This document shows positions 3,540 through 60,686 of a stretch of DNA of 64,000 nucleotides, piece after piece (position 1 is the stretch's first letter; each line of letters begins with the position of its first letter). The translations under genes were made by a program, and so were the position numbers. The notes under the pieces are model-generated. The model searched no databases. It saw nothing but the letters and a program-made list of their open reading frames with translations, and was not told the DNA's origin. The stretch lies in the sequence record PP359570; one strand, written 5' to 3'. Origin of the DNA: Escherichia phage ALITA.

Positions 3540-3615
3540 GGTTCCATAGCTCACTGACGAGAGCGCACACCTCATAAGTGTCGAGGGCAGGGATTGTAAC
3601 CCTGGGGAACCACCA
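3540..3615 (+). tRNA. tRNA-Met/Ile2 (anticodon CAT)
   Basis: Cloverleaf: acceptor GGTTCCA/GGGAACC, D-stem GCTC/GAGC, anticodon loop CTCATAA, T-stem CAGGG/CCCTG with atypical T-loop ATTGTAA, 3' ACCA encoded. Confidence 0.75.
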
Positions 3616-3646
3616 TTTAAAAGGAGGTGCTATGCATCTCCTATAT

Positions 3647-3732
3647 GCAAGTGTGGTGGAATTGGTGATACACATTGTGCTTAAAACGCAACGCTTAAAT
3701 GCTTGAGGGTTCGAATCCCTCCACTTGCACCA
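3647..3732 (+). tRNA. tRNA-Leu (anticodon TAA), type II
   Basis: Acceptor GCAAGTG/CACTTGC, anticodon loop CTTAAAA, 13-nt variable arm, T-loop GGGTTCGAATCCC, CCA encoded. Confidence 0.8.
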
Positions 3733-3734
3733 AC

Positions 3735-3840
3735 GCCTAGTAGGGTATTTGGTAATTCCGAGGCCATCAAAGCCTGAAAAATATGTTAGACCGTTTTGTC
3801 TAACTAAATACGAAATATGGTTCGATTCCATAACTAGGCT
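3735..3840 (+). tRNA. atypical long tRNA-like gene (about 106 nt), candidate anticodon TCA (would read UGA); Sec/Ser-like architecture
   Basis: Perfect 7-bp acceptor GCCTAGT/ACTAGGC, 6-bp D-stem with 4-nt loop, anticodon arm AGGC-CATCAAA-GCCT, long variable hairpin GTTAGAC-CGTTTT-GTCTAAC, canonical T-arm TATGG-TTCGATT-CCATA; no encoded CCA. Confidence 0.4.
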
Positions 3841-3875
3841 CCCGATTTAAATAGTAATTTTTTAATAAAAATATC

Positions 3876-3904
3876 TTGACATTTACTTAGTTTTTTGTTA
3901 TAGT
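3876..3904 (+). promoter_or_regulatory. sigma70-like promoter (-35 TTGACA 3876-3881, -10 TATAGT 3899-3904)
   Basis: Consensus hexamers, 17-bp spacer, TG upstream of -10; precedes tRNA at 3916. Confidence 0.55.
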
Positions 3905-3915
3905 CATTATGAAAA

Positions 3916-3997
3916 CGGGGTGTATCTCACCTGACTTCTAATCAGGCGTTAACCGAGTAATTGGAGTATGCAGGTTCGAATCCTGTCACCCCGGCCA
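3916..3997 (+). tRNA. tRNA-Arg-like (anticodon TCT), atypical: no canonical D-arm, 23-nt extra region
   Basis: Perfect acceptor CGGGGTG/CACCCCG, anticodon arm CCTGA-CTTCTAA-TCAGG, T-arm GCAGG-TTCGAAT-CCTGT, GCCA 3' end; only 7 nt between acceptor and anticodon stem. Confidence 0.45.
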
Positions 3998-4015
3998 AAA
4001 AGTTTTAAAAACTAC

Positions 4016-4044
4016 TTGACAAGCAAGATAGTTTTATGTTAGAT
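4016..4044 (+). promoter_or_regulatory. sigma70-like promoter (-35 TTGACA 4016-4021, -10 TTAGAT 4039-4044)
   Basis: Consensus -35, 17-bp spacer; precedes tRNA-Ser. Confidence 0.5.
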
Positions 4045-4060
4045 TTAAAGTATGGTAACA

Positions 4061-4150
4061 GGAAGGTAGGGCGCAGCGGTGCGCAACCAGGTTTGAACCC
4101 TGGCCCATTGTAGCGATACGGTGATGGTTCGACTCCATTATCTTCCTCCA
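4061..4150 (+). tRNA. tRNA-Ser (anticodon TGA), type II
   Basis: Acceptor GGAAGGT/ATCTTCC, anticodon arm CCAGG-TTTGAAC-CCTGG, long variable arm, T-loop GGTTCGACTCC, CCA encoded. Confidence 0.75.
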
Positions 4151-4168
4151 AATTCGCTTAGGAGCTTT

Positions 4169-4321
4169 ATGAATTATAAAACTATTGGACAGGTTGTTAC
4201 CGGAGTTAAGATTGTAAATAATAAAGTTGTTTATGAGTATTCTAATCTTCAACAATCTGAAGATGGTAAGAATATTTGTATGGTAAAAGCAGAACAAAAA
4301 GATTCCGGTTGTTTTGAATAA
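4169..4321 (+). CDS. hypothetical small protein (50 aa)
   Basis: ATG 4169 after SD aggag 4160-4164, immediately downstream of tRNA-Ser; ORF-track ORF 4121..4321 starts inside the tRNA so the internal ATG is preferred. Confidence 0.4.
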   Translation: MNYKTIGQVVTGVKIVNNKVVYEYSNLQQSEDGKNICMVKAEQKDSGCFE

Positions 4322-4329
4322 TTAAAAAC

Positions 4330-4415
4330 GGTAGATTGGTGAAATGGTAGCCACAACAGTTTGCTAAACTGTCGTCGGAAACGGCGTGTAGGTTCAAGTC
4401 CTACATCTACCGCCA
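4330..4415 (+). tRNA. tRNA-Ser (anticodon GCT), type II
   Basis: Acceptor GGTAGAT/ATCTACC, anticodon arm ACAGT-TTGCTAA-ACTGT, variable arm, T-arm GTAGG-TTCAAGT-CCTAC, CCA encoded. Confidence 0.8.
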
Positions 4416-4541
4416 AGTTATCTTTAATGTAGCTTGTAATCTTACTTTAGCAGAGTAAATCTTCGGCAAGTGGCAGTAACCACTTTACCGATAGCCCATA
4501 GTCAAGTGCCGCAAACACTGGCTATTTTAAAGATAATTTAT

Positions 4542-4617
4542 ACATCGTTAGCTTAGTTGGTAGAGCAAGGGGCTTTTAACTCCAAGGTCGAAGGTTCGAA
4601 TCCTTCACGATGTACCA
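4542..4617 (+). tRNA. tRNA-Lys (anticodon TTT)
   Basis: Acceptor ACATCGT/ACGATGT, D-arm GCTT-AGTTGGTA-GAGC, anticodon loop CTTTTAA, T-arm GAAGG-TTCGAAT-CCTTC, CCA encoded. Confidence 0.8.
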
Positions 4618-4622
4618 AACAC

Positions 4623-4709
4623 GTAGGTATCGCATAGCGGCAATTGCTGGAGACTGTAAATCTCTTGCCCTTCGGGGCTTCGTTGGTTCGAGTCCAACTA
4701 CCTGCACCA
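4623..4709 (+). tRNA. tRNA-Tyr (anticodon GTA), type II
   Basis: Acceptor GTAGGTA/TACCTGC, anticodon arm GGAGA-CTGTAAA-TCTCT, variable arm TGCCCTTCGGGGCTTC, T-arm GTTGG-TTCGAGT-CCAAC, CCA encoded. Confidence 0.75.
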
Positions 4710-4716
4710 AATTAAA

Positions 4717-4801
4717 GATGGATTGGCCTAGTGGTTGGGCGACGGACTGTTAATCCGTGAACGAAAGTTCTAGCAAGGTTCAAATCCTTGATCCATCGCC
4801 A
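4717..4801 (+). tRNA. tRNA-Asn (anticodon GTT) with unusually long variable arm
   Basis: Acceptor GATGGAT/ATCCATC, anticodon arm ACGGA-CTGTTAA-TCCGT, variable hairpin GAAC-GAAA-GTTC, T-arm CAAGG-TTCAAAT-CCTTG, CCA encoded. Confidence 0.6.
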
Positions 4802-4805
4802 AATA

Positions 4806-4873
4806 GTGCTTGTAGAGTTAATAGAAACCTCTAGAATTTTCTAGAATTGTAGGTATCAAATCCTACCAAGCAA
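4806..4873 (+). pseudogene. tRNA-like remnant (acceptor and T-arm-like pairing, no anticodon arm, no CCA)
   Basis: GTGCTTG/CAAGCAA acceptor-like pairing and GTAGG-TATCAAAT-CCTAC hairpin; internal region contains palindrome TCTAGAATTTTCTAGA instead of an anticodon arm. Confidence 0.25.
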
Positions 4874-4880
4874 ATATTTT

Positions 4881-4955
4881 GCTCCTATCGTATAACGGCT
4901 ATTACGGTTGCCTTGTAAGCAACTTATCAGGGTTCGAGTCCTTGTGGGAGCACCA
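4881..4955 (+). tRNA. tRNA-Thr (anticodon TGT)
   Basis: Acceptor GCTCCTA/TGGGAGC, anticodon arm GTTGC-CTTGTAA-GCAAC, T-loop GGGTTCGAGTCC, CCA encoded. Confidence 0.75.
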
Positions 4956-4977
4956 ATTTAACTCTAAAGGAGTGTAT

Positions 4978-5301
4978 GTGACAGAAAAAGAGTTAGAGAA
5001 ATATTTTAATATCAATGTTTTCGATGGTTTTGATGATATTGAAGATGTTGAAAGATATTATGAAGTAGAGTTAGATAAGGATAACATTGTAATTCTTTCT
5101 GCCACTTATGATTGTGCATATTATGAAGGCGAATCTCACGTTTATTTCTATGATATGAAAACATCTTTGTTTTATGAAGTACACGCATATCATTGTTCTT
5201 GTTATGGCTTAGAAGGTCAGTGGGAACCTGAAGAAATAGGTGATTTGAGCTTTACGGTTGCATATCTAAACAGACGTGGTGCATCTACTATTTTAAAATA
5301 A
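4978..5301 (+). CDS. hypothetical protein (acidic, Cys/His-containing)
   Basis: ORF-track ORF 4879..5301 begins inside tRNA-Thr; in-frame GTG 4978 follows SD aaggag 4967-4972 and is the likely start. Confidence 0.5.
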   Translation: MTEKELEKYFNINVFDGFDDIEDVERYYEVELDKDNIVILSATYDCAYYEGESHVYFYDMKTSLFYEVHAYHCSCYGLEGQWEPEEIGDLSFTVAYLNRRGASTILK

Positions 5302-5315
5302 ATATTAAAAGCCTC

Positions 5316-5345
5316 TTGACAAAGGGGCTAATAATATGTTAGAGT
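5316..5345 (+). promoter_or_regulatory. sigma70-like promoter (-35 TTGACA 5316-5321, -10 TAGAGT 5340-5345)
   Basis: Consensus -35, 18-bp spacer; precedes tRNA-Gly. Confidence 0.5.
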
Positions 5346-5356
5346 AATATTGTTAA

Positions 5357-5431
5357 GCGGGTATAGTGTTAATGGTAGCATATGAGGTTTCCACCCTCCA
5401 GGTGCAGGTTCAAGTCCTGTTACTCGCTCCA
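5357..5431 (+). tRNA. tRNA-Gly (anticodon TCC)
   Basis: Acceptor GCGGGTA/TACTCGC, anticodon loop TTTCCAC, T-arm GCAGG-TTCAAGT-CCTGT, CCA encoded; resembles bacterial tRNA-Gly(UCC). Confidence 0.8.
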
Positions 5432-5530
5432 AGATTATTTAAATGGAATCGCTAGAGAAAATTTCTCTTTTCGCTCATGGTTTTCTCCTTCAAACTCTAG
5501 CGGTTCTTTTTAAGTGATTTTTAGTTTTAT

Positions 5531-5605
5531 TGGAGATTAGCCTAGTGGGAAGGCAACGGCCTTTGAAGTCGTGATGACTAGGTTCGATTCCTAGATCTCC
5601 AGCCA
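5531..5605 (+). tRNA. tRNA-Gln (anticodon TTG)
   Basis: 5' U1 with A72 (TGGAGAT/ATCTCCA) as in bacterial tRNA-Gln, anticodon arm ACGGC-CTTTGAA-GTCGT, T-arm CTAGG-TTCGATT-CCTAG, GCCA end. Confidence 0.8.
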
Positions 5606-5647
5606 ATTAATTGCATAGCATGAGTATTTCTCATTGGTTAAAAGGAG

Positions 5648-6013
5648 ATGCAAGTGAATTGTGAACATTGTGGTAGTGAGTTTACTTTGATAAAAGGTCA
5701 TGGTGGACAAAACAGATCATACTGTTACACTTGTATTCCAGAAGGTTTAGATAAACAAGTACGCACAAGATTACATCAAGAACTTAGAAGAGAGCGATCT
5801 CATAAGATGAAACTTGATTTAGGTTGCAAAGTGTGTGGTTATGCTAAATGTGCAGTAGCACTAGAATGGCATCACCCAGAGGACGATAAGAAACACGATC
5901 CATCTAATGCAATCAAAAGATCTTGGTCTGCTTACTTAGAAGAGACTGAAAAGTGTATCTTACTATGTGCCAATTGTCATAGAGAAGTACATGCTGGTCT
6001 TATACAGGTTTAA
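5648..6013 (+). CDS. HNH homing endonuclease (free-standing, inside tRNA array)
   Basis: 121-aa ORF; CxxC...CxxC zinc-binding pairs and HNH motif WHHPEDDKKHDP...LLCANCHREVH; alternative start GTG 5654 has better SD spacing. Confidence 0.85.
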   Translation: MQVNCEHCGSEFTLIKGHGGQNRSYCYTCIPEGLDKQVRTRLHQELRRERSHKMKLDLGCKVCGYAKCAVALEWHHPEDDKKHDPSNAIKRSWSAYLEETEKCILLCANCHREVHAGLIQV

Positions 6014-6014
6014 T

Positions 6015-6090
6015 CAGTGCGTAGCGCAGTTGGTAGCGTGGGAGCCTTGGACGCTTCAGGTCGCAGGTTCGAGTCCTGCCGCACTGACCA
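6015..6090 (+). tRNA. tRNA-Pro (anticodon TGG)
   Basis: Perfect acceptor CAGTGCG/CGCACTG, anticodon arm GGAGC-CTTGGAC-GCTTC, T-arm GCAGG-TTCGAGT-CCTGC, CCA encoded; starts 2 nt after HNH stop. Confidence 0.8.
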
Positions 6091-6095
6091 AATTT

Positions 6096-6170
6096 GCAGA
6101 GATAGCTGAGACGGATTAGTGCTACCCTGAAAAGGTAGAAAGGATGGATCGTTACCATCTCTCTGCACCA
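6096..6170 (+). tRNA. tRNA-Phe (anticodon GAA)
   Basis: Acceptor GCAGAGA/TCTCTGC, anticodon arm CTACC-CTGAAAA-GGTAG, T-arm GATGG-ATCGTTA-CCATC (non-canonical T-loop), CCA encoded. Confidence 0.7.
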
Positions 6171-6247
6171 GATAATACCATCCAAGGAGAATACTTGGTT
6201 AACTGTCAATAGCACATTGAGGCTTCTTACAGTGGTGTACTTATTAT

Positions 6248-6332
6248 GGCTAAGTGGTGGAATGGTATACACGATACGCTTAGAACGTATTGCCCCAAGG
6301 GATTGTGAGTTCGAGTCTCACCTTAGCTACCA
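6248..6332 (+). tRNA. tRNA-Leu (anticodon TAG), type II
   Basis: Acceptor GGCTAAG/CTTAGCT, anticodon arm ATACG-CTTAGAA-CGTAT, variable hairpin CCC-CAA-GGG, T-arm GTGAG-TTCGAGT-CTCAC, CCA encoded. Confidence 0.75.
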
Positions 6333-6347
6333 AATTATTACAGGTTT

Positions 6348-6426
6348 CGCGGGATAGAGGAGTCTGGTCGTCCTCGCCAGTTTCATATGCTGGAGATCGT
6401 AGGTTCAAATCCTACTCCCGTTACCA
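6348..6426 (+). tRNA. tRNA-Met/Ile2 (anticodon CAT), second copy
   Basis: Acceptor CGCGGGA/TCCCGTT (terminal mismatch), D-arm GAGG/CCTC, anticodon arm CCAGT-TTCATAT-GCTGG, T-arm GTAGG-TTCAAAT-CCTAC, CCA encoded. Confidence 0.6.
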
Positions 6427-6470
6427 ATAAATACCTCCCTTCTGGTGTAATGATTAAATTACATTGACAC

Positions 6471-24974: not shown

Positions 24975-25712
24975 ATGGATGCTTTAAATTTTGTAACAGC
25001 AATCCGTGGATTAATCAACGAGCAAGTTGCGGAAGTACATACATCTTTACCTGTAAGGGTAATTGGTGTAGATTATGGATCTAAGACAGTAACTTTAGAA
25101 TCTATTGTAAAAAACACCAGATCTACTGAAGATGAAATAGATTACCCAACATTCCACGATGTTCCTTTTATGGTAAATGGTGGTGGTACAGGTAGAATTT
25201 CATTTCCAATTAAAGCAGGAGATATTGGTGTTGTTGTCTTTTCAGAAAGAGATCCGTCGAATGCTTTCCAGACAGACGGAGATACAGCCAGCAGCGGAAC
25301 ATTAATTCAACCTTGTGGTTTGTATCCAGCCTGTTTTATTCCTAAGATAGCAACAGCTACAGATTCTTCTGAAGAAGTAGACTCTGAAAAAGTTGTTATC
25401 TCAAATAATAAGCAAACTTACGCTTCGTTTGATCCTAACGGTAATATATCTGTGTACAACACACAAGGTATGAAAATAGATATGACACCAAACAGTATCG
25501 TTCTTACTGATGCAGGAGGAGGAAAACTTACACTGCAAGGTGGGACTATGACATATAAAGGTGGTACTGTAAATTTAAACGGTTTAACAATCACACCTGA
25601 CGGTCGTATGAAAGATAGTGGTGGCATTGGTTTACACACACATACACACCCTGTACGCGGTGTTGAAACTGGTGGTAGCACTGTTACTTCCGACAAACCA
25701 AATGGAGGTTAA
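24975..25712 (+). CDS. baseplate central spike-like protein
   Basis: 245-aa ORF, Gly/Thr-rich C-terminus with HTHTHP motif; precedes gp25/W-like gene. Confidence 0.45.
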   Translation: MDALNFVTAIRGLINEQVAEVHTSLPVRVIGVDYGSKTVTLESIVKNTRSTEDEIDYPTFHDVPFMVNGGGTGRISFPIKAGDIGVVVFSERDPSNAFQTDGDTASSGTLIQPCGLYPACFIPKIATATDSSEEVDSEKVVISNNKQTYASFDPNGNISVYNTQGMKIDMTPNSIVLTDAGGGKLTLQGGTMTYKGGTVNLNGLTITPDGRMKDSGGIGLHTHTHPVRGVETGGSTVTSDKPNGG

Positions 25713-25715
25713 CAG

Positions 25716-26351
25716 ATGGGAATACCATTTGATTTAAAACTTGATGGTTCTAATGATTTAGTGATGGTGGATGGTGATTTAACACTAACCACAACTAAAA
25801 GTGAAATTGCAGCACAGACGCTTGGAATAACACTTAGAACTTTCCGTGGAGAATGGTTCCTCAATTCTAATTTTGGGGTTCCATATCTGCAAGAGATTAT
25901 TGGTGTTGCCAAGAAGAAAGAGATTGTTGATCGCATTTTCTTATCAACTATCGCAAGTAATGTTTATATAGATAATATTAATTCATACACGTCCTCTTAT
26001 GATAGAGATGATAGGTATTACTCAATGAACGTTACTGTTACAGTTGGTGAACAAGTTGTTAGTGCGCTGTTCAGTACGCAGCCGTCTGAAGAATATATCT
26101 ATCCAGAAGCTGGTGATGATAATGCAGCAATCACTTGTGAAGCATTTGAAATTGTTGAATCTGCAAATAGACTCTATCGCTTTATTAACATTGTTGGTCT
26201 TCCTAGAGATACTTATTCTACTTGGTGGAATGAATGGTCTAACGAGGCATTGATTGAAAAATACCTTGTTAACGAAGCCAATAAAGGTCTTGCAACCAAT
26301 TACAACTATGCTATAACAGCAACAATGGGAGCTACAAATAATAATGGCTGA
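25716..26351 (+). CDS. baseplate wedge protein (gp25/GPW-like)
   Basis: N-terminal MGIPFDL...DGDL...IAAQTLGITLRTFRGEWFLNSNFGVPY resembles the GPW/gp25 family signature. Confidence 0.55.
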   Translation: MGIPFDLKLDGSNDLVMVDGDLTLTTTKSEIAAQTLGITLRTFRGEWFLNSNFGVPYLQEIIGVAKKKEIVDRIFLSTIASNVYIDNINSYTSSYDRDDRYYSMNVTVTVGEQVVSALFSTQPSEEYIYPEAGDDNAAITCEAFEIVESANRLYRFINIVGLPRDTYSTWWNEWSNEALIEKYLVNEANKGLATNYNYAITATMGATNNNG

Positions 26352-26817
26352 TTTAACTACAATCAAGGTGTCTGATCTACCTGTAACAACATCTGTTTCA
26401 GACACAGATTATTTTGTAACAGATCAATCAGGCATCACTAAGAAAACATCATTACGTGTTCTTCTTGCGGGTGCTGGTGTTACACGAAATCGTCTTTCTG
26501 CAAGGGGTACTGTCACAAATACCCTAGCTTTAGATATTAGCACGGCAGAGTATTTCTCTGCCACTTTATCTAGTCCAACTTGCAGTATTTCATTTAGTAA
26601 TGTTCCAGTTACAACTAACATTGTTCAAAACTTTACTCTATCTCTACGTCAAGGTAGTGGAGCAAATAAAGTAACGTGGCCTCAATCTGTTAAATGGAGT
26701 TTTGGTCGCGCTCCTGTTTTGAGTTATAAACAGGGAGCTACAGATATTTTTGAATTTGTTAGTTATGATAATGGAGCTACCTGGATAGGTAGTTTAGTGA
26801 TGGCAGGAGTGATTTAA
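26344..26817 (+). CDS. hypothetical baseplate protein
   Basis: 157-aa ORF overlapping neighbours by a few nt. Confidence 0.4.
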   Translation: MADLTTIKVSDLPVTTSVSDTDYFVTDQSGITKKTSLRVLLAGAGVTRNRLSARGTVTNTLALDISTAEYFSATLSSPTCSISFSNVPVTTNIVQNFTLSLRQGSGANKVTWPQSVKWSFGRAPVLSYKQGATDIFEFVSYDNGATWIGSLVMAGVI

Positions 26818-33827: not shown

Positions 33828-34019
33828 ATGTCTTTCAACATACTAAGTATTATCTATGATAAGGAGACGCAAAGGGCGTATTCCCTACCTGCTGATATTG
33901 CCCCAGGTATTACTGCCATTAGTCTTAGTGCTGCTGTACTTGTGCATTCAGCGGGTTCTGTAGACCTTGGGGAATTAGCTGTATATCGTGATTTAAAAAG
34001 TAATGAGAACGCACCATGA
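33828..34019 (+). CDS. hypothetical small protein
   Basis: 63-aa ORF, weak SD. Confidence 0.3.
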   Translation: MSFNILSIIYDKETQRAYSLPADIAPGITAISLSAAVLVHSAGSVDLGELAVYRDLKSNENAP

Positions 34020-34261
34020 GAAAATTTTTAATAGGTATGTTTTGTACATATCCTGATAATAAAGTCAGTTCTACTAAAGTTTGGAATGCTATTGGTATGA
34101 TTGTTATGTCCAGTATGTTTATTTATTTGGGAATTGACAAAGAAATTCCTGAATGGATGGGCTGGGCTTTTGTTTTTATGATCACACCATCCAGACTAAT
34201 GAAGAATTTAATAGATTTACGTTGGGGCAGATCACCTGCCCCTGATAAGGAGGATAACTAA
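34016..34261 (+). CDS. small membrane protein with two predicted TM helices
   Basis: 81-aa ORF; hydrophobic VWNAIGMIVMSSMFIYLGI and EWMGWAFVFMITP. Confidence 0.4.
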   Translation: MRKFLIGMFCTYPDNKVSSTKVWNAIGMIVMSSMFIYLGIDKEIPEWMGWAFVFMITPSRLMKNLIDLRWGRSPAPDKEDN

Positions 34262-35748
34262 TGGCAGATTATGGTTTAACAGATGCTGGTTTTGTCATTC
34301 CAACGTTTGATGATATTCTAAATAATTATATGACAGCATTGAAAAACACTTTCGGTGCAGATACAGCTACATCTGAAGATACAGTCTTTGGTCAACTGTT
34401 TCGTATTATTGCATATACAGATTACACCCTTTGGGAAGGTATGCAAGGTGTTTACAATACCCAAACCTTAGATGGTGCAGAAGGTATTTACCTTGATGAA
34501 ATCTTCTCTAAAAGAGGTTTTTATCGTAAAGCTGCTTCTGCTGGTAGTGGTTATGCTTATGTTAAATCTAACAATAAGGCAGCTTGGACTTATGAACTAA
34601 GCACAGATGTTTATTTTAATGCCGATAACGATTTGACATATTATGTCAGTGCACCAACAATGTTGAATGCTAAGATTGGAGCATATACCATTTCTAAAGC
34701 AAACGCAACAGCTTCTGGTGAAACTTCTATTACTTTCTACATTCAAAGTGCTATTGATGGTGGTCTTAACAGTAAAACACTAAGTCCTAGCAATACAAAC
34801 TTTATTGTAGATCTCACGAATTTCATTAAAGCTAACGTATCAACAACAGATCGTGCTTTAGTATGGAATGATGCTGGTAATGTTTATATGGGTTATAATC
34901 CAGAAGATAATGTTAACCCAATAGGTCTAGTAACACCCGTGAAATTTTATGCATCTATTGCCATTGGTACAAAATGGAGTGAAATTCCAGTTACGTGTTC
35001 AGACGTTGGTTATAATCCAGTAGGTACAGAAAGTATTACAGGTATTTCTTCAACGTTTACAGGCTTTTTAGATACAGGTAACTTCTATCCGTTCTCTCCA
35101 GGTACAGATGTTGAAACAGATGCAGAATTCCGTTCTCGTTTCAATGATAATATGGATGAAGCTAATGCTGCTACTCGTGCTGCTATTGTTAAAGCTCTAT
35201 TACTGACAGATGGTGTGACAAAGGTTAAGATTTACGATAACCCTACACTACACGATCAGGAACATGCTCCAGCTATGACATTCCAGACTATTGTGTATGG
35301 TGGTACAGCAGAAGAAGTTGCACAGGTTATTTATAATACTAAGCCTATTAACACATTAACTTATGGTACGACAGCAATTACTATCGTAACAGAAGATGGT
35401 GGTCAAGAAGTAATTCGTTTTTCTCCTGGTGATAATGCGGAATACTCACTTAAACTGGTATATCAAACTGGTAATGGTAGTGTGTTAAGTACAACAGAAA
35501 GAGAAAATATTGTTTCTGCTCTTGCAAACTTACAGGCTTATTTTGAATTAGGGTCAACAGTAACTAACGATCAGATAAAAGGTGTAATTTATTCTGCACT
35601 TGCGTTCGGACGCTTGACTTCTCTCCGTGTTTATGTTAAACTTAATACTGAGGATGACAGTAAATATAATGAGGGAGATATCACTCCAGCGTACAATGTT
35701 GTACCATCCTTTGACCTTGATAATATTTCCTACGAGTACGGAGTCTAA
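34261..35748 (+). CDS. baseplate J-like protein
   Basis: 495-aa ORF; N-terminal region resembles baseplate J family; followed by smaller baseplate protein and fibre genes. Confidence 0.55.
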   Translation: MADYGLTDAGFVIPTFDDILNNYMTALKNTFGADTATSEDTVFGQLFRIIAYTDYTLWEGMQGVYNTQTLDGAEGIYLDEIFSKRGFYRKAASAGSGYAYVKSNNKAAWTYELSTDVYFNADNDLTYYVSAPTMLNAKIGAYTISKANATASGETSITFYIQSAIDGGLNSKTLSPSNTNFIVDLTNFIKANVSTTDRALVWNDAGNVYMGYNPEDNVNPIGLVTPVKFYASIAIGTKWSEIPVTCSDVGYNPVGTESITGISSTFTGFLDTGNFYPFSPGTDVETDAEFRSRFNDNMDEANAATRAAIVKALLLTDGVTKVKIYDNPTLHDQEHAPAMTFQTIVYGGTAEEVAQVIYNTKPINTLTYGTTAITIVTEDGGQEVIRFSPGDNAEYSLKLVYQTGNGSVLSTTERENIVSALANLQAYFELGSTVTNDQIKGVIYSALAFGRLTSLRVYVKLNTEDDSKYNEGDITPAYNVVPSFDLDNISYEYGV

Positions 35749-35750
35749 AA

Positions 35751-36380
35751 ATGGCAGTGAGTGTTGACCATGTGACAACGTGGGATAGTATCAATGAAGA
35801 TGTTAAAGACCTACTGATTGAAGATTTTAAATCTTCTCCGAACATTGTCAAACTACTCTATATCATTTCTAGCGAAAAACAAAAGATAGATCAGGCAATG
35901 ATCTATCTTGCCAAACACCGCTTAATCTCTACTGCAACTGGTAAGTATTTAGATCTTATTGGTGAAGAGATGGGGATGGAAAGAAATGGTGCTACAGATG
36001 AAGAGTATCGTACAATATTAAAAATCAGGGCTTATCGTGTTGCGTCTTCTGGTACGCGAGATGATATCATTGATATGTTCGCTCGTTTTACAGGAACAGA
36101 AAAAGAAACGATTAATACATACGTTGGATTAAATAAAACATTCGACGTATTCTTTTATAATTTGTGTCTACAATCCGATCAGGCAGTAGCACAGTTACTT
36201 AACGTTTTCCCGATCCTAAGTAGTTATCGCTTAGGTGCGAAAGCGGGTGCAGCCTTTGGTTTCACTTCCTATTATGCCACAACTCCACCTCATGGTATAG
36301 GTGGTTTAGGTTCTCTTTACACAGAGGCTGAAGGAGATGATACAGGGCGAATGACTATGCTGATAGCTCAAATAGAATAA
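35751..36380 (+). CDS. baseplate protein (I-like, follows J-like gene)
   Basis: 209-aa ORF; assignment by position. Confidence 0.4.
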   Translation: MAVSVDHVTTWDSINEDVKDLLIEDFKSSPNIVKLLYIISSEKQKIDQAMIYLAKHRLISTATGKYLDLIGEEMGMERNGATDEEYRTILKIRAYRVASSGTRDDIIDMFARFTGTEKETINTYVGLNKTFDVFFYNLCLQSDQAVAQLLNVFPILSSYRLGAKAGAAFGFTSYYATTPPHGIGGLGSLYTEAEGDDTGRMTMLIAQIE

Positions 36381-37947: not shown

Positions 37948-38289
37948 ATGGAGCTAACAGAAGTATGGGATATCGCTAAAGAGGCGATTATCCCTCTTAT
38001 TGGCGTAATCTGGGTGGTCTTCAAACAGAAGATAGATGATATGGCAAGTGATTTGGATAAAATGGAAGACAAATACCGCGAACTAGAAAAGAAGTTGGTG
38101 TTTGTTGAATCCACTTATGCTACCAAAGCAGAACTTGCTCAAATGCTTAACCAGATCAACTCTACATTAATGGCAAATAATACTGCCTTAGAACAGAAGA
38201 TTGAAAAAATAATGGATTTAAAAAATGCTCCTGTTCAATTAATGCTAGAGGAGATTACAAAGCGCACACAAAGTAAGGACAAAAATTAA
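37948..38289 (+). CDS. hypothetical protein (N-terminal TM helix plus coiled coil)
   Basis: 113-aa ORF. Confidence 0.35.
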   Translation: MELTEVWDIAKEAIIPLIGVIWVVFKQKIDDMASDLDKMEDKYRELEKKLVFVESTYATKAELAQMLNQINSTLMANNTALEQKIEKIMDLKNAPVQLMLEEITKRTQSKDKN

Positions 38290-48143: not shown

Positions 48144-48186
48144 TCAAGTCCTCATAATAACACATAATTATAATGTTTGTCAACAC

Positions 48187-53780: not shown

Positions 53781-54050
53781 CTAAAATGATTCGTTTGTCT
53801 CCATAATATATTGCATTTCCAAATCTTCCATATGTTTCTTAAATTGGTAAACAATTTCCGATGGGGAAATATCTATATCAAAAAGTTCTTTTGTACCAGA
53901 ATAAAACCTAATACCATCAACAATAAGACCACCATAATAATCCCAATCACTTTCTCGTGAGAAAGGGTTAGGTTCTTCATAATAGTAATCTACTTCAACA
54001 ATAATAGGTTCTTTATTATCTTGTTTATACTCAAAATCAAAAGTGTGCAT
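53781..54050 (-). CDS. hypothetical protein
   Basis: 89-aa ORF with SD, start overlaps stop of upstream gene. Confidence 0.45.
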   Translation of the reverse strand: MHTFDFEYKQDNKEPIIVEVDYYYEEPNPFSRESDWDYYGGLIVDGIRFYSGTKELFDIDISPSEIVYQFKKHMEDLEMQYIMETNESF

Positions 54051-54985
54051 TATAAATCCTCGATAAGCAGTCTGCGGGTTTCATTTAAATTGTAGTTATC
54101 TCTTACATACTTAGCAAGAGCCAATCCTTTCTCAATACAAACATCAGGGGATTCGATTAAGTATTCTACAATATCTTTCCACTCTTTAACTGAATCAGCA
54201 AAGAAGATTAGATCTTTAAATTCTTCAGTATAATAGTTCTCTCGTGGCGAACAAACGAGTGGCAAACCTTTAGCACCAGCTTCAAGAATTTTTAAATTAC
54301 TTTTGGCATTATTAAAATGATTATTTACTAATGGAGCTATGGAGATTTGATGACCATCGTATGCTTCCATATAACACTCATAAGGACGAATACCTTCATA
54401 AACACAATCTGGTTGAATATTTTCTTTAATTTGCAACCATTGAGCACTACTTAACTCTTCGTGATCTCTACGAAATCCACATAAAGTTAAATCTTTACCA
54501 AAATCAGGAAGAATTGCTAAATCATGTTTATGTGTTTCACTTCCCGCCCAAACCAGTGGACTTTTAGAATAACGATCTTTAGTAAGAACAAACTGTCCTT
54601 CATCAAAAGGTAGTCCGTTAGGCACAATATGTACATTATCATTGTATTGGCTTAATTCAACCTTTAATGCCGGAGTTGTTGTAGTTACAAGATCACTTCT
54701 TTCAAGGAACCATTTTAGGTCATCTCGGATTTGATTTTCAAATAATCCTTCAAGCATATGCCCTTCAGGAATAATTAAAGAATCATCCAGATCCATTACC
54801 AATTTAAACCCAAGTTGTTTAAGAGCCAGGAAACCTGGCTTTCCACGTGTTGGTACTCCATTGAACACAAAAATATTATGCTTAGGATTAATTGTCAGTT
54901 TGCGTTTATATGGCAAAATGATTCTATGAAAATCACATACACTATACTTTTCATTTCCGCGTGTGTCAAGAATAATATTAGGCAT
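54050..54985 (-). CDS. putative GT-B-fold glycosyltransferase (paralogue A)
   Basis: 311-aa ORF; C-terminal KSNLKILEAGAKGLPLVCSP resembles GT-B nucleotide-sugar-binding motif; clear paralogue of the next gene. Confidence 0.5.
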   Translation of the reverse strand: MPNIILDTRGNEKYSVCDFHRIILPYKRKLTINPKHNIFVFNGVPTRGKPGFLALKQLGFKLVMDLDDSLIIPEGHMLEGLFENQIRDDLKWFLERSDLVTTTTPALKVELSQYNDNVHIVPNGLPFDEGQFVLTKDRYSKSPLVWAGSETHKHDLAILPDFGKDLTLCGFRRDHEELSSAQWLQIKENIQPDCVYEGIRPYECYMEAYDGHQISIAPLVNNHFNNAKSNLKILEAGAKGLPLVCSPRENYYTEEFKDLIFFADSVKEWKDIVEYLIESPDVCIEKGLALAKYVRDNYNLNETRRLLIEDL

Positions 54986-54996
54986 ATATCTCCTTG

Positions 54997-55971
54997 TTAA
55001 AGACTTTCAATAACTTGACGACGCAGTTCATTGGCATCTGCAAGATTATAATTAAGACGAACGTGTTCTGCAAGCATCATACCACGATCTTCTGTGTATC
55101 TAGGGTTCCTCATTAGCTTGACAACTTCATAATGCCAAGATGCTTTAGAGTCTGCATAGATAACAGCCTTTGCATCTACCGGATTGAAGTACGGCAGCAC
55201 AGGAGAACAGATAATAGGAAGACCCTTTGCACCTGCTTCCAAAATCTTCAAATTGCTTTTACAGTTGTTGAAGTCATTATCTACCAGGGGAGCAATTGCA
55301 ATACTGTGACCGTCATACACAGACATATACTCACCTAAATTTTTAATAGCTGGTTTATACTGTGCATTTGGAATCTTACGTTTTATTTTAACCCACTCCG
55401 CAGTAGTTAGATACTGACTATTATTTCCAACAGGTGCAGAAGGATACACTTCATACCCTGCAATTGTCAATAGTGTATCATCAAATGTATTAGCTACAAG
55501 AGATAAATCAGGTTCGTGGCTTGCTCCTCCAGCCCAGATAATAGGCGTGTCAGAATTACGGTCTTTTGTCAAAGTAAATTGACCTTCGTCGTAAGGTAGT
55601 GCGTTTCTAATAACGACAACATTACGATTTAAATGACGAATTTTGTAAGCTAGGTATTCTGTTGTTACAGTAACAACATCTGCTAACTTGACCATCTCTA
55701 CAATAGTCTTTGAGTGATTAGTAAATACGCCAGCCATATAATGTTCAGGATTAAGTGAATAAAAATCATCTAAATCAACAATAATCTTAACACCTTGTGC
55801 CTTCAGGCGTTTAACCTCGTCTGCTCCACGAGAATACACTCTATTAAAAACTAAAACGTCTTTCTTAGGTTTAAACGTATTTCCAGCAAATGGCATTACA
55901 ATACGATGGTAATCACAACCACTGCCTAACTTATTATCACACTTAAGTACAGGAGTATTAGGATTTACCAT
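54997..55971 (-). CDS. putative GT-B-fold glycosyltransferase (paralogue B)
   Basis: ATG 55971 after SD gaggagg; shares CD(F/Y)HRI, LP(F/Y)DEGQF.LTKDR, YDGH.I.IAPLV, KSNLKILEAGAKGLP blocks with paralogue A. Confidence 0.5.
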   Translation of the reverse strand: MVNPNTPVLKCDNKLGSGCDYHRIVMPFAGNTFKPKKDVLVFNRVYSRGADEVKRLKAQGVKIIVDLDDFYSLNPEHYMAGVFTNHSKTIVEMVKLADVVTVTTEYLAYKIRHLNRNVVVIRNALPYDEGQFTLTKDRNSDTPIIWAGGASHEPDLSLVANTFDDTLLTIAGYEVYPSAPVGNNSQYLTTAEWVKIKRKIPNAQYKPAIKNLGEYMSVYDGHSIAIAPLVDNDFNNCKSNLKILEAGAKGLPIICSPVLPYFNPVDAKAVIYADSKASWHYEVVKLMRNPRYTEDRGMMLAEHVRLNYNLADANELRRQVIESL

Positions 55972-56644
55972 ATTTTTGAGCCTCCTCATAAGAGATAAAA
56001 GTTTTACCATTGCGAAGATCCTCCAGTGATTGTTTATATTGTTCCCAGTTTACACCAATCCCCTGTTCTTTCTCTTCTTTTGACAGATTCGCAAAAGGTA
56101 AAGGATTATCTCCAAATACATCATCAGGATGGATAAACGCCATAATTCGAATAGGACATGGCACGCCTTGAATACCTCGGTTCAAACCTGCCAGTGGAAC
56201 GCGATGAATCCACTCTGCATCTTCATATCCATAACCGTGGGTGTATGAGCGGAAATAGCCAGCTTTCTCAATAACTGCACGGGAATACATACCAAACTGG
56301 CACATACCTAGTTCCCAAATAACCACTTCCCCTTCAATACCTTTTACTTTATCTTTAAAGTATTCAGGCATACCAAAGAAATCCCAACCATTTTCCTTCG
56401 CCTGTTTTACAAAATATGTTTCCCAACCTTGAACAACAGGATAGCAATCATCATCAAAAATAAACCAGTAATCATACCCTTCATCATAAAACTTTTTCAT
56501 CAGTTCATTACGAGCATATGCAACACCTTTTCGTTCCCGATCATACTGTACAACAAAAGTAGCATTAGGATCAGTCACAAGATAATCTTTAAGAGGACGC
56601 TTACCTACAGTAATAACACCAACACCAATTTTTGTATTTTCCAA
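55958..56644 (-). CDS. putative GT-A-fold glycosyltransferase
   Basis: 228-aa ORF; DxD-type motif FIFDDDCYP and downstream GYGYEDAEW resembling GT-A acceptor-side motifs. Confidence 0.5.
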   Translation of the reverse strand: MENTKIGVGVITVGKRPLKDYLVTDPNATFVVQYDRERKGVAYARNELMKKFYDEGYDYWFIFDDDCYPVVQGWETYFVKQAKENGWDFFGMPEYFKDKVKGIEGEVVIWELGMCQFGMYSRAVIEKAGYFRSYTHGYGYEDAEWIHRVPLAGLNRGIQGVPCPIRIMAFIHPDDVFGDNPLPFANLSKEEKEQGIGVNWEQYKQSLEDLRNGKTFISYEEAQKYGKS

Positions 56645-56653
56645 AATAACTCC

Positions 56654-57217
56654 TTAAATAATTTTATTCATGTCTTGACAATGTAAAAGGTGTGAAATAG
56701 CTTTTCTAGGATCATCATTACCTAAACGGTATGTGTGAAATAAATATAACCCACGTAGTAAACCTAGCCTTTTATTGTTAGCGTGCAATGCTTTAGAGAA
56801 AATTATATCAAACTGTATTGATCTTTCCTCAAAAGGGATTTCATTCCACAGACTCTTACGAAAGAGAAGAAAGAATCCTGCTAAGATAGCATCTGTAGGT
56901 ACTTCCTCTATTGAGTTTCCCCATTCTAGATGTGCTCTTTTTGCAATCTCAATGTGGTGTAATATATTCGGATCTTCACTTCTTTCATTATTAAATAATT
57001 GATATGTTGATCCCAATCTATTACAAGATGCACCAAGAACATCAAAATCAGGATTTGAACGGACTATTGATTCCAGCCAAGCAGGTTGTTCTGGAAGAAG
57101 AAACATTGTATCAATGTCTCTTAGGCAAATCCAACTATCTTCTGGTAAGACACTTATTGTGTCATTGATACCTTTTCCAATATCTCCAGAAAGATAGGGA
57201 GTTATGTGAAATATCAT
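56654..57217 (-). CDS. possible glycosyltransferase-like protein (DxD motif)
   Basis: 187-aa ORF; ICLRDIDTMF; assignment weak. Confidence 0.3.
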   Translation of the reverse strand: MIFHITPYLSGDIGKGINDTISVLPEDSWICLRDIDTMFLLPEQPAWLESIVRSNPDFDVLGASCNRLGSTYQLFNNERSEDPNILHHIEIAKRAHLEWGNSIEEVPTDAILAGFFLLFRKSLWNEIPFEERSIQFDIIFSKALHANNKRLGLLRGLYLFHTYRLGNDDPRKAISHLLHCQDMNKII

Positions 57218-57965: not shown

Positions 57966-58475
57966 TTAGCGATAAAATTGATGTTCTTTGTAGCGGTACA
58001 CTAGAACCATATCTTTTTCCCAGTGTGCTCTTATTGTAGATTTTTTAAAGTATAATGCTCCTTTTGTAATATCTAATGCAATTCGTAATTCTGGAAAATG
58101 CGTATCGAGATAAAGTAGACGTTCTGCTATAGCCTTAGCTTCCTTCCACTTATCACGTTCCATAACGTTGAATGTCTTTGTGTAAGAGAATTGTCCTTTT
58201 TGAAACAAAACTTCTTTTATAGTATCAGGGAAATATGAATCTCTAGCCCTATTCAATACTACATTACCAACAGCAGACATACCGCGCTTTCCTTGATTAC
58301 GACTTTCTGCATAGATTGCACAAGCTAATAGATTTTCTTTACTATCACGCTTTGTACACTTGTGAACTACTTTAGCAGTTTTTACGTTTGCAGCTTCGGC
58401 TTGCGCCACAACAGGTGTAAATGTAAAAGCAGTTAAGGATAGTAACGCAATTGCGACAAAGGTTTTTATTGACAA
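57966..58475 (-). CDS. secreted cell-wall hydrolase (SleB/CwlJ-type Hydrolase_2 family), candidate endolysin
   Basis: 169-aa ORF; N-terminal signal peptide ending AQAEA; motif CAIYAESRNQGKRGMSAVGNVVLNRA...FPDT...FQKGQFS. Confidence 0.6.
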   Translation of the reverse strand: MSIKTFVAIALLSLTAFTFTPVVAQAEAANVKTAKVVHKCTKRDSKENLLACAIYAESRNQGKRGMSAVGNVVLNRARDSYFPDTIKEVLFQKGQFSYTKTFNVMERDKWKEAKAIAERLLYLDTHFPELRIALDITKGALYFKKSTIRAHWEKDMVLVYRYKEHQFYR

Positions 58476-58567
58476 ACTTGCCTCCTATTTTGTTAAACGA
58501 ACTTTTATTGTAACACAGAAGAGGCTGTTTTGCAAGTGGAGGGGGATAATCCCCCTCTTACATTCTG

Positions 58568-59222: not shown

Positions 59223-59819
59223 TTACTCGAACCAATCGTCGCCAGCGCCAAACGCTTTAACTACATCATAAATGTCAAGTCCAGCTTTACCTACACCATA
59301 TGCTTTCAGTTTCCATTCGCTATCTTCCCGCACCAGGGAGGCAACGTGGCAAATGGTATTACCTGCAAGTTCTGGAGCCAAGAAGTCAAAATCCAGCAGT
59401 TCAACGTTACGTTCATCATCGAAGATTTTAAGGAAACCTTCGGTAGCGTGACCAAGGCGTTTCTTACCCGTTTCGTCATCAATAGTGATTACGAATGCAA
59501 TTTCCTGTGCTTCAGCAGAGATATTATCCAGTGTAACATCAATCTGCTCCATTTGTCCTACACCGTCACGAACATCTTCACCTGCAAAAGTAGAACGTTC
59601 AGGATCAAATTTCTGTGCGTAGCATACCAGGTGGCGAGGAGACAACAGTTCCGGCAGACCAGATGCATTGTGTCGGCAAATCAGAGCACTAACATCCAGA
59701 TCCAGTTTTTCGTTAGATTTCCAAGAGAATTCCAGACGAATGCGTTTCAGTGCTGGTGCAATCTTTTTCAGAGAAACTTTTTCGCTAGAACCTTTTTTCA
59801 GGGAAATTTTCTGAGTCAT
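59223..59819 (-). CDS. TerD-domain protein
   Basis: 198-aa ORF with SD; ISLKKGSSEKVSLKK, LDLDVSALICR, GEDVRDGVGQMEQIDVTL, IAFVITIDD, EWKLKAYGVGKAG match TerD-family architecture. Confidence 0.75.
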   Translation of the reverse strand: MTQKISLKKGSSEKVSLKKIAPALKRIRLEFSWKSNEKLDLDVSALICRHNASGLPELLSPRHLVCYAQKFDPERSTFAGEDVRDGVGQMEQIDVTLDNISAEAQEIAFVITIDDETGKKRLGHATEGFLKIFDDERNVELLDFDFLAPELAGNTICHVASLVREDSEWKLKAYGVGKAGLDIYDVVKAFGAGDDWFE

Positions 59820-59891
59820 AATTTATTATCTCCTTTGTTGTTAATTTACGTTGTCTATTTTACTAATCTTTTCTACAAAGTCAAGCGTTTT

Positions 59892-60686
59892 TTACGCTTT
59901 TGCTCCAAATTTTTTAACCCACTCGCCAAACTCTTCGGATAGCAGTTTATCGTAAAGTTCTTCGTCAGACAAGGACAAATCTGCAATACCGATAAAATCA
60001 ACGTTATCGTATTCTTTTGCCAAGTCTTTCAGGAATTTAAAGTTTGCATTACCTACACCAACCATAAACCAGTAAACAGGAGTGTTGCGGTGTTTGTTCA
60101 GCAAACTACGTACTGCTGAAGTATCCATGTTCTCCCCGTCAGTTTGGAAGAAAATCATTGCAGGAGTACGATCAACTTGTGCATCAGTATCTACAACCTG
60201 TTCTACAACAGTACGTGTAACTTCTACACGTTCTTTTTTACCAGTTAGTTTAGCAAGGAAACCCTTAGCCGGAACTTCTTCATACTCAACGACTTCGCGT
60301 GTAATATTTTTCATAGGTACACTACCGAAGTATGTATCATAGATCTCTTGCATTACTGGAGCATAAGCTGTACCACCATTGATGCAAACATTAGACATAC
60401 AAGAGCCGACATAATCATCATATACATCAGCCGTTGCAGGAGGCAGTTCAAAAGAAGAACTATTGAAAGCCCACATGTCAATCTGTGCATTATCATCAAA
60501 CTTCATACCAAACGGCAGCAGCTTACCTACAAAATCACTAACAGTGCCATCACGATACAGCTCACACATACTACCCGAAATATCTAAGGCGCTACCGACA
60601 CGAAGAACAACATCGTTAATCTTTTTCTTACGCAGAGATACGGTAAGAGTTTCTTGACGTTTTTTAAGACTGATTTTATTGGACAT
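59892..60686 (-). CDS. von Willebrand factor A (vWA) domain protein, TerY-like
   Basis: 264-aa ORF with SD; MIDAS motif DISGS plus downstream Thr and Asp (GGTAY, QTDGE). Confidence 0.65.
   Translation of the reverse strand: MSNKISLKKRQETLTVSLRKKKINDVVLRVGSALDISGSMCELYRDGTVSDFVGKLLPFGMKFDDNAQIDMWAFNSSSFELPPATADVYDDYVGSCMSNVCINGGTAYAPVMQEIYDTYFGSVPMKNITREVVEYEEVPAKGFLAKLTGKKERVEVTRTVVEQVVDTDAQVDRTPAMIFFQTDGENMDTSAVRSLLNKHRNTPVYWFMVGVGNANFKFLKDLAKEYDNVDFIGIADLSLSDEELYDKLLSEEFGEWVKKFGAKA

Follow-up and report, generated by a model that had tools for sequence, protein, structure and literature searches.

SleB of Bacillus is a spore-cortex lytic transglycosylase, and genes for proteins of its family (Hydrolase_2, PF07486) recur in several families of large coliphages. 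In the phi92-like relatives of the phage considered here, a PF07486 protein has already been stated to be one of two lytic proteins, the other belonging to PF00959 (PMC12210895), and the same two families are given as the two lytic proteins of Phapecoctavirus iGC_PHA_EC001 (PMC10793346). For rV5, the authors called the PF00959 protein gp89 "an obvious lysin" and described gp2 only as a "cell wall hydrolase"; gp146 is the characterised endolysin of PVP-SE1 (PMC3352856). For the Certrevirus homologue CB7_83, a signal peptide is predicted and expression in E. coli proved toxic (PMC7344957). T5-like phages combine an M15C peptidase gene beside a holin gene with a distant SleB-domain gene (PMC11180984, PMC3326045), and the authors leave to be determined which endolysin is primarily used (PMC11180984). 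An in-silico study of related phages detected no signal peptides (PMC10698182).

The gene analyzed here lies within a window of 64 kb (the whole stretch of DNA under study), a piece of a Justusliebigvirus genome, that is, of a phi92-like E. coli myovirus of the Stephanstirmvirinae with a genome of ~147 kb. Over its first 20 kb the window shows 99% identity to VEcB, phi92 and others. It runs parallel to VEcB (NC_052663.1), in collinear order, from about position 47,455 on, and the 4-kb neighbourhood of the hydrolase gene is 98.6–99.5% identical to more than 20 deposited genomes. The same gene is found in other Justusliebigvirus and Phapecoctavirus genomes (VEcB JR328_gp190, alia JR320_gp051, phAPEC8 "cell wall hydrolase SleB"), with protein identities of 97–100% in Justusliebigvirus and ~75% in Phapecoctavirus and with position, neighbours, promoter, and TTG start shared. 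Gene, domain, and "endolysin" label already appear in more than 50 near-identical GenBank records, and several genome papers note two lytic proteins. RefSeq names the gene "endolysin", and GenBank records name it "putative cell wall hydrolase (SleB)" or "hypothetical protein"; the varied annotations of the orthologues ("endolysin", "cell wall hydrolase", "hypothetical") are putative. Features of the locus, together with the spanin genes of the window, are listed in Table 1.

Table 1. Coordinates of the hydrolase gene, its signals, and the spanin genes within the window.
Feature	Position	Strand	Basis
CDS, SleB/CwlJ-family (Hydrolase_2) cell-wall hydrolase precursor, 169 aa, TTG start	57966..58475	minus	ORF list; Pfam; 100% identity to the VEcB SleB-like protein
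Hydrolase_2 catalytic domain, residues 61–168 by Pfam	57972..58295	minus	Pfam; PDB sequence search; AlphaFold/Foldseek
GAA codon for Glu57, predicted catalytic glutamate in YAESRNQ	58305..58307	minus	Alignment with SleB 4F55/4FET
Predicted Sec signal peptide, codons 1–26, MSIKTFVAIALLSLTAFTFTPVVAQA; possible cleavage after A24, A26, or A28	58398..58475	minus	Sequence; conservation
AGGAGG ribosome-binding site, separated by 5 nt from the TTG start	58481..58486	minus	Read from sequence
Sigma-70-type promoter, TTGCAA-N17-TACAAT, TGn extended -10	58507..58535	minus	Promoter scan
G+C-rich stem-loop abutting the -35 element	58539..58559	not assigned	Sequence scan
i-spanin, N-terminal transmembrane domain (TMD)	7775..8206	plus	Sequence; VEcB annotation "Rz-like spanin"
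o-spanin, lipobox LMMTGC, gene overlapping the i-spanin gene and directly before terminase	8112..8441	plus	Sequence

The hydrolase gene lies outside any lysis cassette, in the replication/host-takeover arm of the genome. Upstream of it on the minus strand are genes for a 200-aa protein of no known function, a TerD protein, and a vWA-TerF-like protein; downstream are three small soluble proteins of no known function, followed by four glycosyltransferases, a helicase/primase, and a DNA polymerase. The spanin pair comprises the only recognisable lysis genes in the window. A preliminary description of this DNA had placed the hydrolase gene on the opposite strand about 50 kb from the spanins, which is borne out by a distance of ~49.5 kb with the spanins on the plus strand. 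It had also seen no obvious pinholin in the window; no gene for a TMD protein flanks the hydrolase gene, and no pinholin candidate adjoins it. Nor does a holin gene lie beside the hydrolase gene or beside the spanins in the window.

The reading frame had been reported with a Hydrolase_2 motif set, and its coordinates proved exact. All the motifs quoted (PVVAQAEAAN, AIYAESRNQ, GNVVLNRA, FPDT, and FQKGQFS) occur in the translation, which begins MSIKTFVAIALLSLTAFTFTPVVAQAEAANVKTAKVVHKCTKRDSKENLLACAIYAESRNQGKRGMSAVGNVVLNRARDSYFPDTIKEVLFQKGQFSY. Pfam assigns it to PF07486 with 72.1 bits (E = 6.5e-20, profile positions 2–100 of 100), against a curated gathering threshold of 27 bits. This is the only Pfam domain in the protein, PG_binding_1 being absent, and residues 29–45 form a short linker. 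The best-matching PHROG is 938, labelled "endolysin". A PDB sequence search returned only the SleB catalytic domains 4F55 and 4FET, whose YGESRGE aligns with YAESRNQ of the hydrolase and places Glu57 on the SleB catalytic glutamate. Glu57 is invariant across a 20-sequence alignment of close homologues, and the motif Y-x-E-[SA]-R-[GN] is found in 135 of the 149 best family representatives outside the immediate clade. An AlphaFold model built with 20 homologues has pLDDT values of 80–95 in the core and below 50 for residues 1–32. When this model was compared with the PDB, Foldseek matched 4FET_A, 4F55, and 4FET_B (E ~1e-4, probability 1.0; TM 0.68–0.71 normalised to the target) from about residue 38 onward, and gave no match below E = 1 beyond these three SleB chains. 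Positions 57966–58475 are a real gene, encoding a Hydrolase_2 domain with a predicted SleB-catalytic-domain fold.

The predicted fold and the catalytic glutamate motif (Y-x-E-S/A-R-G) are the same as in Bacillus SleB (4F55 from B. cereus, 4FET from B. anthracis), but identity is 23–24% and the phage protein lacks the N-terminal PG_binding_1 domain, which makes it a family member and not an orthologue. A bona fide spore cortex-lytic SleB is ruled out by the missing PG_binding_1 domain and by the host, E. coli. By homology to SleB, the hydrolase is predicted to be a lytic transglycosylase as well. The phage's host is not known to make a muramic-delta-lactam cortex, and the hydrolase must accordingly differ from SleB in substrate specificity. 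In the close-homologue alignment Cys40 and Cys52 are invariant within the clade, a pair that would fit a periplasmic disulfide and an oxidising compartment.

The N-terminus had been described as a cleavable-looking signal sequence ending in AQAEA, and its composition agrees with that prediction. The n-region (MSIK) contains a single Lys, the hydrophobic core spans ~15 residues (TFVAIALLSLTAFTF), and the helix-breaking Pro21 is followed by three overlapping small-x-small motifs, VVA, AQA, and AEA. The lack of Cys in the segment excludes a lipoprotein signal. Its VAQA ending is also that of the OmpA signal peptide of E. coli. A precursor cleaved after A26 would give a mature protein of 143 aa with a computed mass of 16.8 kDa and pI of 9.7. 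The signal-like segment is kept in 19 of 19 close homologues from the protein database (61–98% identity), as well as in the rV5-like homologue (VKIKIFAIILSALLSLPVVA, followed by APKQ), the T5-like homologue (MKAALLLVAALTFSFSSQA, followed by SHD), and the Seunavirus-like homologue. A hydrophobic 10-mer (Kyte-Doolittle value of at least 2.0) starts within the first 20 residues in 126 of the 149 best family representatives from beyond the immediate clade, and several of the remaining 23 are obvious start-site miscalls or fragments. Export looks like an ancestral trait of this hydrolase sub-family, and holin-independent access of the enzyme to the wall is plausible. The c-region drifts among close homologues but keeps small residues at -3/-1, while the n- and h-regions together are better conserved than the catalytic domain (mean column identity 0.89 versus 0.77–0.82). 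Conservation of this kind is not what one expects of a signal peptide that is discarded, and would be compatible with a membrane segment that is kept. The apparent insertion energy of the h-region (+0.9 kcal/mol for 19 residues) lies between those of the OmpA signal peptide and known SAR domains, although Hessa-scale hydrophobicity sums do not tell a signal peptide from a SAR domain.

Relatives of the hydrolase are widespread among phages. A tblastn survey found the SleB-like protein in 1,226 phage records, and an exhaustive HMMER search of the family yielded 17,458 representative clusters at E ≤ 1e-3; a word-indexed protein search had given only the immediate clade, the wider family becoming visible with full HMMER. 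The Vequintavirinae homologues (rV5 gp2, Certrevirus CB7_83, and Seunavirus-like proteins) are ~35–41% identical over their full length and share the signal peptide, the two Cys, the catalytic Glu motif, and co-occurrence with a separate endolysin. Their genes lie directly upstream of rIIA/rIIB, with the stop codon of the rV5-like hydrolase gene overlapping the start of rIIA, whereas the phi92-like gene lies between the Ter module and the genes for small soluble proteins. In Certrevirus and Seunavirus-like phages a 57–65-aa, two-TMD, holin-like protein is encoded just downstream, unlike in this phage, where none stands beside the hydrolase gene. The T5-like (Demerecviridae) SleB-domain protein (SP01 gp090, AKFV33 ORF81) is ~35% identical over the catalytic domain and has a clear signal peptide, but it is shorter (149 aa), its Cys are placed differently, and its gene belongs to the early region of T5. 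Unrelated genes stand upstream of the rV5-like, T5-like, and phi92-like versions, and every neighbour falls in a PHROG of unknown function; these versions show no conserved partner gene. In at least three lineages with a canonical endolysin, then, the presumably exported Hydrolase_2 protein comes as an addition. Across 185,579 species genomes, a pattern-limited scan revealed no close homologue of cellular origin. It gave one 75% match, on an 18.6-kb MAG contig that is possibly phage sequence, and other matches that were 27–58% identical over their best, often partial, segments, in Clostridia and Paracoccus-type alphaproteobacteria.

The stem-loop and promoter of the hydrolase gene occupy the 92-nt spacer upstream of it. 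The -35 element, spacing, and -10 element are conserved in Phapecoctavirus UP17 and in two metagenomic contigs (proteins 60–64% identical). Four lineages share the GGAGGC ribosome-binding site and the TTG start and keep the stem-loop, with a differing stem sequence. With its own stem-loop, promoter, and ribosome-binding site, all of them conserved, the hydrolase gene forms an insulated, self-contained unit. The stem-loop probably serves to insulate or end the upstream TerD-side transcript, although the minus strand lacks a U-tract there; the conserved, weak TTG start would fit low dosage of a potentially harmful enzyme. Sigma-70-like promoters with a TGn extended -10 precede replication-side and structural genes alike; because the same promoter type stands before structural genes, the hydrolase promoter is uninformative on the stage of expression. 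Occurrences of the T4 late motif TATAAATA show no enrichment (8 against an expected 6.5).

The preliminary description had proposed the hydrolase as a candidate endolysin. It had named a true endolysin elsewhere in the genome as what would count against this, and such a canonical candidate is encoded by VEcB (99% nucleotide identity), outside the window. This second muralytic gene (VEcB gp056; 22337–22837, minus strand; 166 aa) lies ~25 kb before the window start. Its product has no hydrophobic N-terminus or signal sequence, matches Pfam Phage_lysozyme, and has 52% identity to T4 lysozyme across 161 residues, a likeness corroborated by tblastn matches of 48–51% to T4-like genes annotated "e: lysozyme murein hydrolase". 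In the alignment, the T4 catalytic residues Glu11, Asp20, and Thr26 correspond to Glu15, Asp24, and Thr30. RefSeq labels gp056 "baseplate hub subunit and tail lysozyme", which traces to a match with the gp5-based PHROG 430; at 166 aa the protein is an e-type soluble lysozyme, and the label is a mislabel. Like T4 e, the phi92-like e-type gene stands apart from the remaining lysis genes.

The 64-kb window itself contains no T4 e-like lysozyme gene, and the 99%-identical collinear genomes suggest that this phage carries one in the remainder of its genome. The two genes travel together: the SleB-like protein occurs in 54 phage records at 95% identity or more and in 77 at 60–80%, the e-like lysozyme in 55 at 95% or more and in 79 at 60–90%, and virtually all Stephanstirmvirinae records with the SleB-like gene also have the e-like lysozyme (~1:1 co-occurrence). 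The endolysin proposal is therefore partly supported. The muralytic-type domain and the RefSeq and PHROG labels speak for it, and the T4 gpe orthologue in collinear, near-identical genomes speaks against it; its strong form, that this is the endolysin, is no longer plausible, while the weaker form, a candidate lysin that would reach the wall without a holin, stands.

We consider it somewhat on the probable side that the hydrolase is a Sec-exported accessory muralytic enzyme that works beside a holin-dependent T4-type lysozyme and the spanins. In this scheme, the precursor would be exported to the periplasm by its classical Sec signal peptide and cut by signal peptidase I around Ala24–Ala28, giving a basic enzyme of ~16.8 kDa with Glu57 as general acid. 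The mature enzyme would cleave glycan strands in the periplasm in the manner of SleB, presumably with the lytic transglycosylase chemistry of its homologues, and would reach the sacculus without a holin. The other muralytic enzyme would be the cytoplasmic, holin-dependent T4 gpe-type lysozyme encoded outside the window. The hydrolase would then not be the phage's sole muralytic enzyme, and it is probably not the principal one; its most likely contribution is to pre-load the periplasm and to assist in breaking down or loosening the wall, at the time of lysis or earlier. The combination of stem-loop, sigma-70 promoter, strong ribosome-binding site, and weak TTG would fit low-level output of a potentially toxic periplasmic enzyme. 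Export, cleavage, reaction chemistry, timing of expression, and contribution to lysis are inferred here, and the literature that we searched contained no test of which enzyme lysis needs.

Several other roles were weighed against that of an accessory enzyme. Lys44 of Oenococcus phage fOg44 is a signal-peptide endolysin, and the only known endolysin, of a phage with a Gram-positive host. The hydrolase could by analogy be a principal endolysin that is secreted by Sec, builds up in the periplasm, and needs no canonical holin to lyse the cell. The likeness would consist in Sec export with a cleavable signal and holin-pore-independent access to the wall, both of them predicted for the phi92-like hydrolase; the catalytic domains are unrelated. 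The database labels, the export signal, the lack of a holin gene beside either the hydrolase gene or the spanins, and the toxicity of the CB7 homologue in E. coli (PMC7344957) agree with such a role. We nevertheless think it unlikely, given a T4 gpe orthologue with intact catalytic residues that co-occurs across the whole subfamily, a SleB-like gene that phages whose endolysin is characterised or holin-adjacent carry in addition, and a location among replication, Ter, and glycosyltransferase genes. Alternatively, the N-terminus might stay uncleaved as a SAR domain, tethering an inactive enzyme in the inner membrane until depolarisation, as in P1 Lyz and phage 21 R. Here the strong conservation of the h-region relative to the catalytic domain, the intermediate insertion energy, the two-TMD protein encoded immediately downstream in Seunavirus-like and Certrevirus relatives, and a third Cys inside the hydrophobic segment of some homologues all point the same way. 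They are outweighed by a predicted signal peptidase I site of textbook form (Pro at -6/-4 with VVA/AQA/AEA, and small -3/-1 residues kept), by a core of only ~15 residues that has F, L, I, and V but no Gly, unlike the Gly/Ala-rich segment of SAR endolysins, and by the absence in this phage of both an adjoining two-TMD gene and a Cys in the hydrolase's own N-terminal segment. We regard SAR tethering as quite improbable.

A role outside lysis has genomic context in its favour but is doubtful. The exported enzyme could remodel the wall, whether by loosening the sacculus for enlargement, by a wall change against superinfection, or by muropeptide processing. The gene stands in the replication/host-takeover arm beside a Ter-type stress module, the rV5-like version directly precedes rIIA/rIIB with its stop overlapping the next start, the T5-like version is in the early region, and the conserved TTG start suggests low dosage. 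Position is a weak clue, however, given that an arm of this kind also contains the T4 e-like gene. Moreover, no functional partner is conserved across lineages, the promoter type is not stage-specific, and the literature searched lent wall remodelling no support. It is scarcely credible that the hydrolase is a virion-associated lysin that pierces the wall at entry: although the tail hub, spike, and tape-measure ORFs of the window contain no lysozyme-type Pfam domain, which would leave such a post vacant, the predicted cleavable export signal leads away from the cytoplasmic site of assembly and the gene is outside the structural module.

A probable accessory role of the hydrolase raises the question of the reason for which large coliphages of several families maintain a presumably exported SleB-like enzyme in addition to a normal endolysin. 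Since an ordinary T4-type lysozyme is encoded in the complete genomes, an unusual route to lysis that dispenses with a holin need not be invoked, and the apparent sole lysin, or "missing endolysin", of this stretch of DNA is an artefact of the boundary of the window. We speculate, tentatively and as a possibility that we would not call probable, that small signal-peptide Hydrolase_2 proteins form a distinct conserved class of low-dosed periplasmic enzyme (TTG start, insulated promoter), kept beside a canonical endolysin in three mutually unrelated groups of virulent, large enterobacterial phages, the phi92/phAPEC8-like, rV5-like, and T5-like ones. Such a class could serve as a holin-independent second lysis arm or in pre-lysis wall remodelling, and its conserved N-terminus and paired Cys might regulate activity. 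The mature domain may also be of relevance as an enzybiotic, because it is predicted to act naturally from the periplasmic side.

Two further observations concern the 5' end of the hydrolase gene. A hairpin like that of the early transcripts of T4 gene e was sought there and rejected, since the fold of 58335–58500 (minus strand) was no better than that of shuffled sequences (z = 0.13). In comparison with Phapecoctavirus UP17, synonymous changes are depleted in codons 1–45 (3/36 versus 44/90, p = 1e-5), a depletion that fades with P0017 and is absent with P0018. General nucleotide constraint on the signal-peptide codons was rejected as its cause because the depletion is limited to the closest lineages; the pattern looks like mosaicism or recent shared ancestry of the 5' segment.

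The overlapping i-/o-spanin pair precedes the large terminase gene, and neither a holin nor an endolysin was found among its neighbours. The spanin-before-terminase layout without an adjoining holin or endolysin is shared by rV5, PVP-SE1 and CB7 (CB7 paper, PMC7344957). Coordinates of this pair and of the other features discussed here are collected in the table.

Features of the ALITA window considered in this part
Feature	Position	Strand	Remarks
tRNA cluster, 15 genes	3540-6648	+	ARAGORN; includes tRNA-Met x2, tRNA-Ser x2, tRNA-Leu x2
Overlapping i-/o-spanin pair	7775-8441	+	Immediately 5' of large terminase gene (8450-10534)
81-aa membrane protein	34016-34261	+	PHROG 1322 'membrane protein'; within tail-fibre/baseplate module
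113-aa protein	37948-38289	+	N-terminal TMD and coiled-coil region; labelled 'lipoprotein'
Four consecutive glycosyltransferase genes	~54050-57217	-	3' of hydrolase gene, co-directional
G+C stem-loop	58539-58559		Directly 5' of -35 element; also at homologous positions in L007, L089 and L090 (relatives' loci)
TerD protein	59223-59819	-	Pfam E=5e-28
vWA-TerF-like protein	59892-60686	-	E=7e-39
Promoter-bearing intergenic regions (examples)	988-1058, 10535-10631, 12201-12284, 22689-22803, 48144-48186, 59820-59891

Elsewhere in the window, the 81-aa membrane protein has two hydrophobic segments, of which the first named in strength is clear and the other weaker, and a charged C-terminus. Two class II holin candidates, of 61 and 81 residues, were described in the BME3 paper; the larger equals the window protein in length. 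Several further small proteins with two TMDs are encoded at other sites in the collinear genome VEcB. The 113-aa protein, in which no lipobox cysteine was found, has a weak PHROG match to an Rz-like spanin (E=5e-4), and its gene is flanked on one side by tail-fibre assembly genes and on the other by tail genes for colanic-acid degradation. Pfam detected neither lysozyme nor transglycosylase domains in the tape-measure, hub, spike and baseplate ORFs of the window (20709-26817 and 34261-36380, plus strand), and the window shows no evident means by which the virion crosses the peptidoglycan during entry.

The intergenic regions of the window contain near-consensus sigma-70 promoters (TTGACA-N16-18-TAnAAT, frequently with TGn), which precede replication-side and structural genes alike; the same pattern was noted in rV5 by Kropinski et al. 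A distinct late-promoter motif was not found in the window. In the promoter of the hydrolase gene, an AGCC(T/C)CT box is conserved within the spacer. Pairing in the adjacent stem-loop is kept among lineages, with variation in the sequence of the stem. Because it lacks a U-tract on the coding (minus) strand, the stem-loop is not a textbook terminator.

Synonymous differences between Justusliebigvirus and Phapecoctavirus are depleted at the start of the hydrolase gene, where they affect 3 of the 36 conserved residues in codons 1-45 (58335-58475, minus strand) versus 44 of 90 in the rest (Fisher p=1e-5). The depletion is weaker or gone when more distant relatives are compared. This sequence pattern suggests that either a recombination boundary or a local constraint underlies the depletion.

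The hydrolase gene is adjoined by a Ter-type stress-response module (59223-60686, minus strand) that runs on past 61933. In relatives, further genes of this arm encode a 'tellurite resistance' protein, a TerC membrane protein and a phosphatase, and a distant metagenomic contig carries TerD, vWA and hydrolase genes in identical order. On its other side, the hydrolase gene is followed by the glycosyltransferase run; the T4 e-like lysozyme gene of VEcB is annotated next to a dTDP-rhamnose pathway.

Three 'Campylobacter phage' records (A150, B15 and C9; MG065639.1, MG065650.1 and MG065661.1), with C. jejuni as host, encode the hydrolase at 97%, 75% and 39% identity. E. coli phages of Justusliebigvirus, Phapecoctavirus and Vequintavirus show these same values, and the records agree with them in genome size as well; the C. 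jejuni host labels look doubtful. In a 142-kb Salmonella phage (locus L006; PQ002170.1, 3947-4697), the SleB-like gene was called from an upstream TTG, giving a 190-aa product. This start is probably mis-called, since the signal-peptide-like segment begins only at residue 16. The gene is followed by one for a 57-aa two-TMD protein and then by rIIA/rIIB. The taxonomy line of this record reads Demerecviridae, and its gene content looks Vequintavirinae-like.

The tRNA annotation differs, with 13 tRNAs in the VEcB RefSeq record versus the 15 genes called in the window. The gene with a GAA anticodon is tRNA-Phe according to ARAGORN; the RefSeq record names it 'tRNA-Leu' and flags it as a pseudogene.
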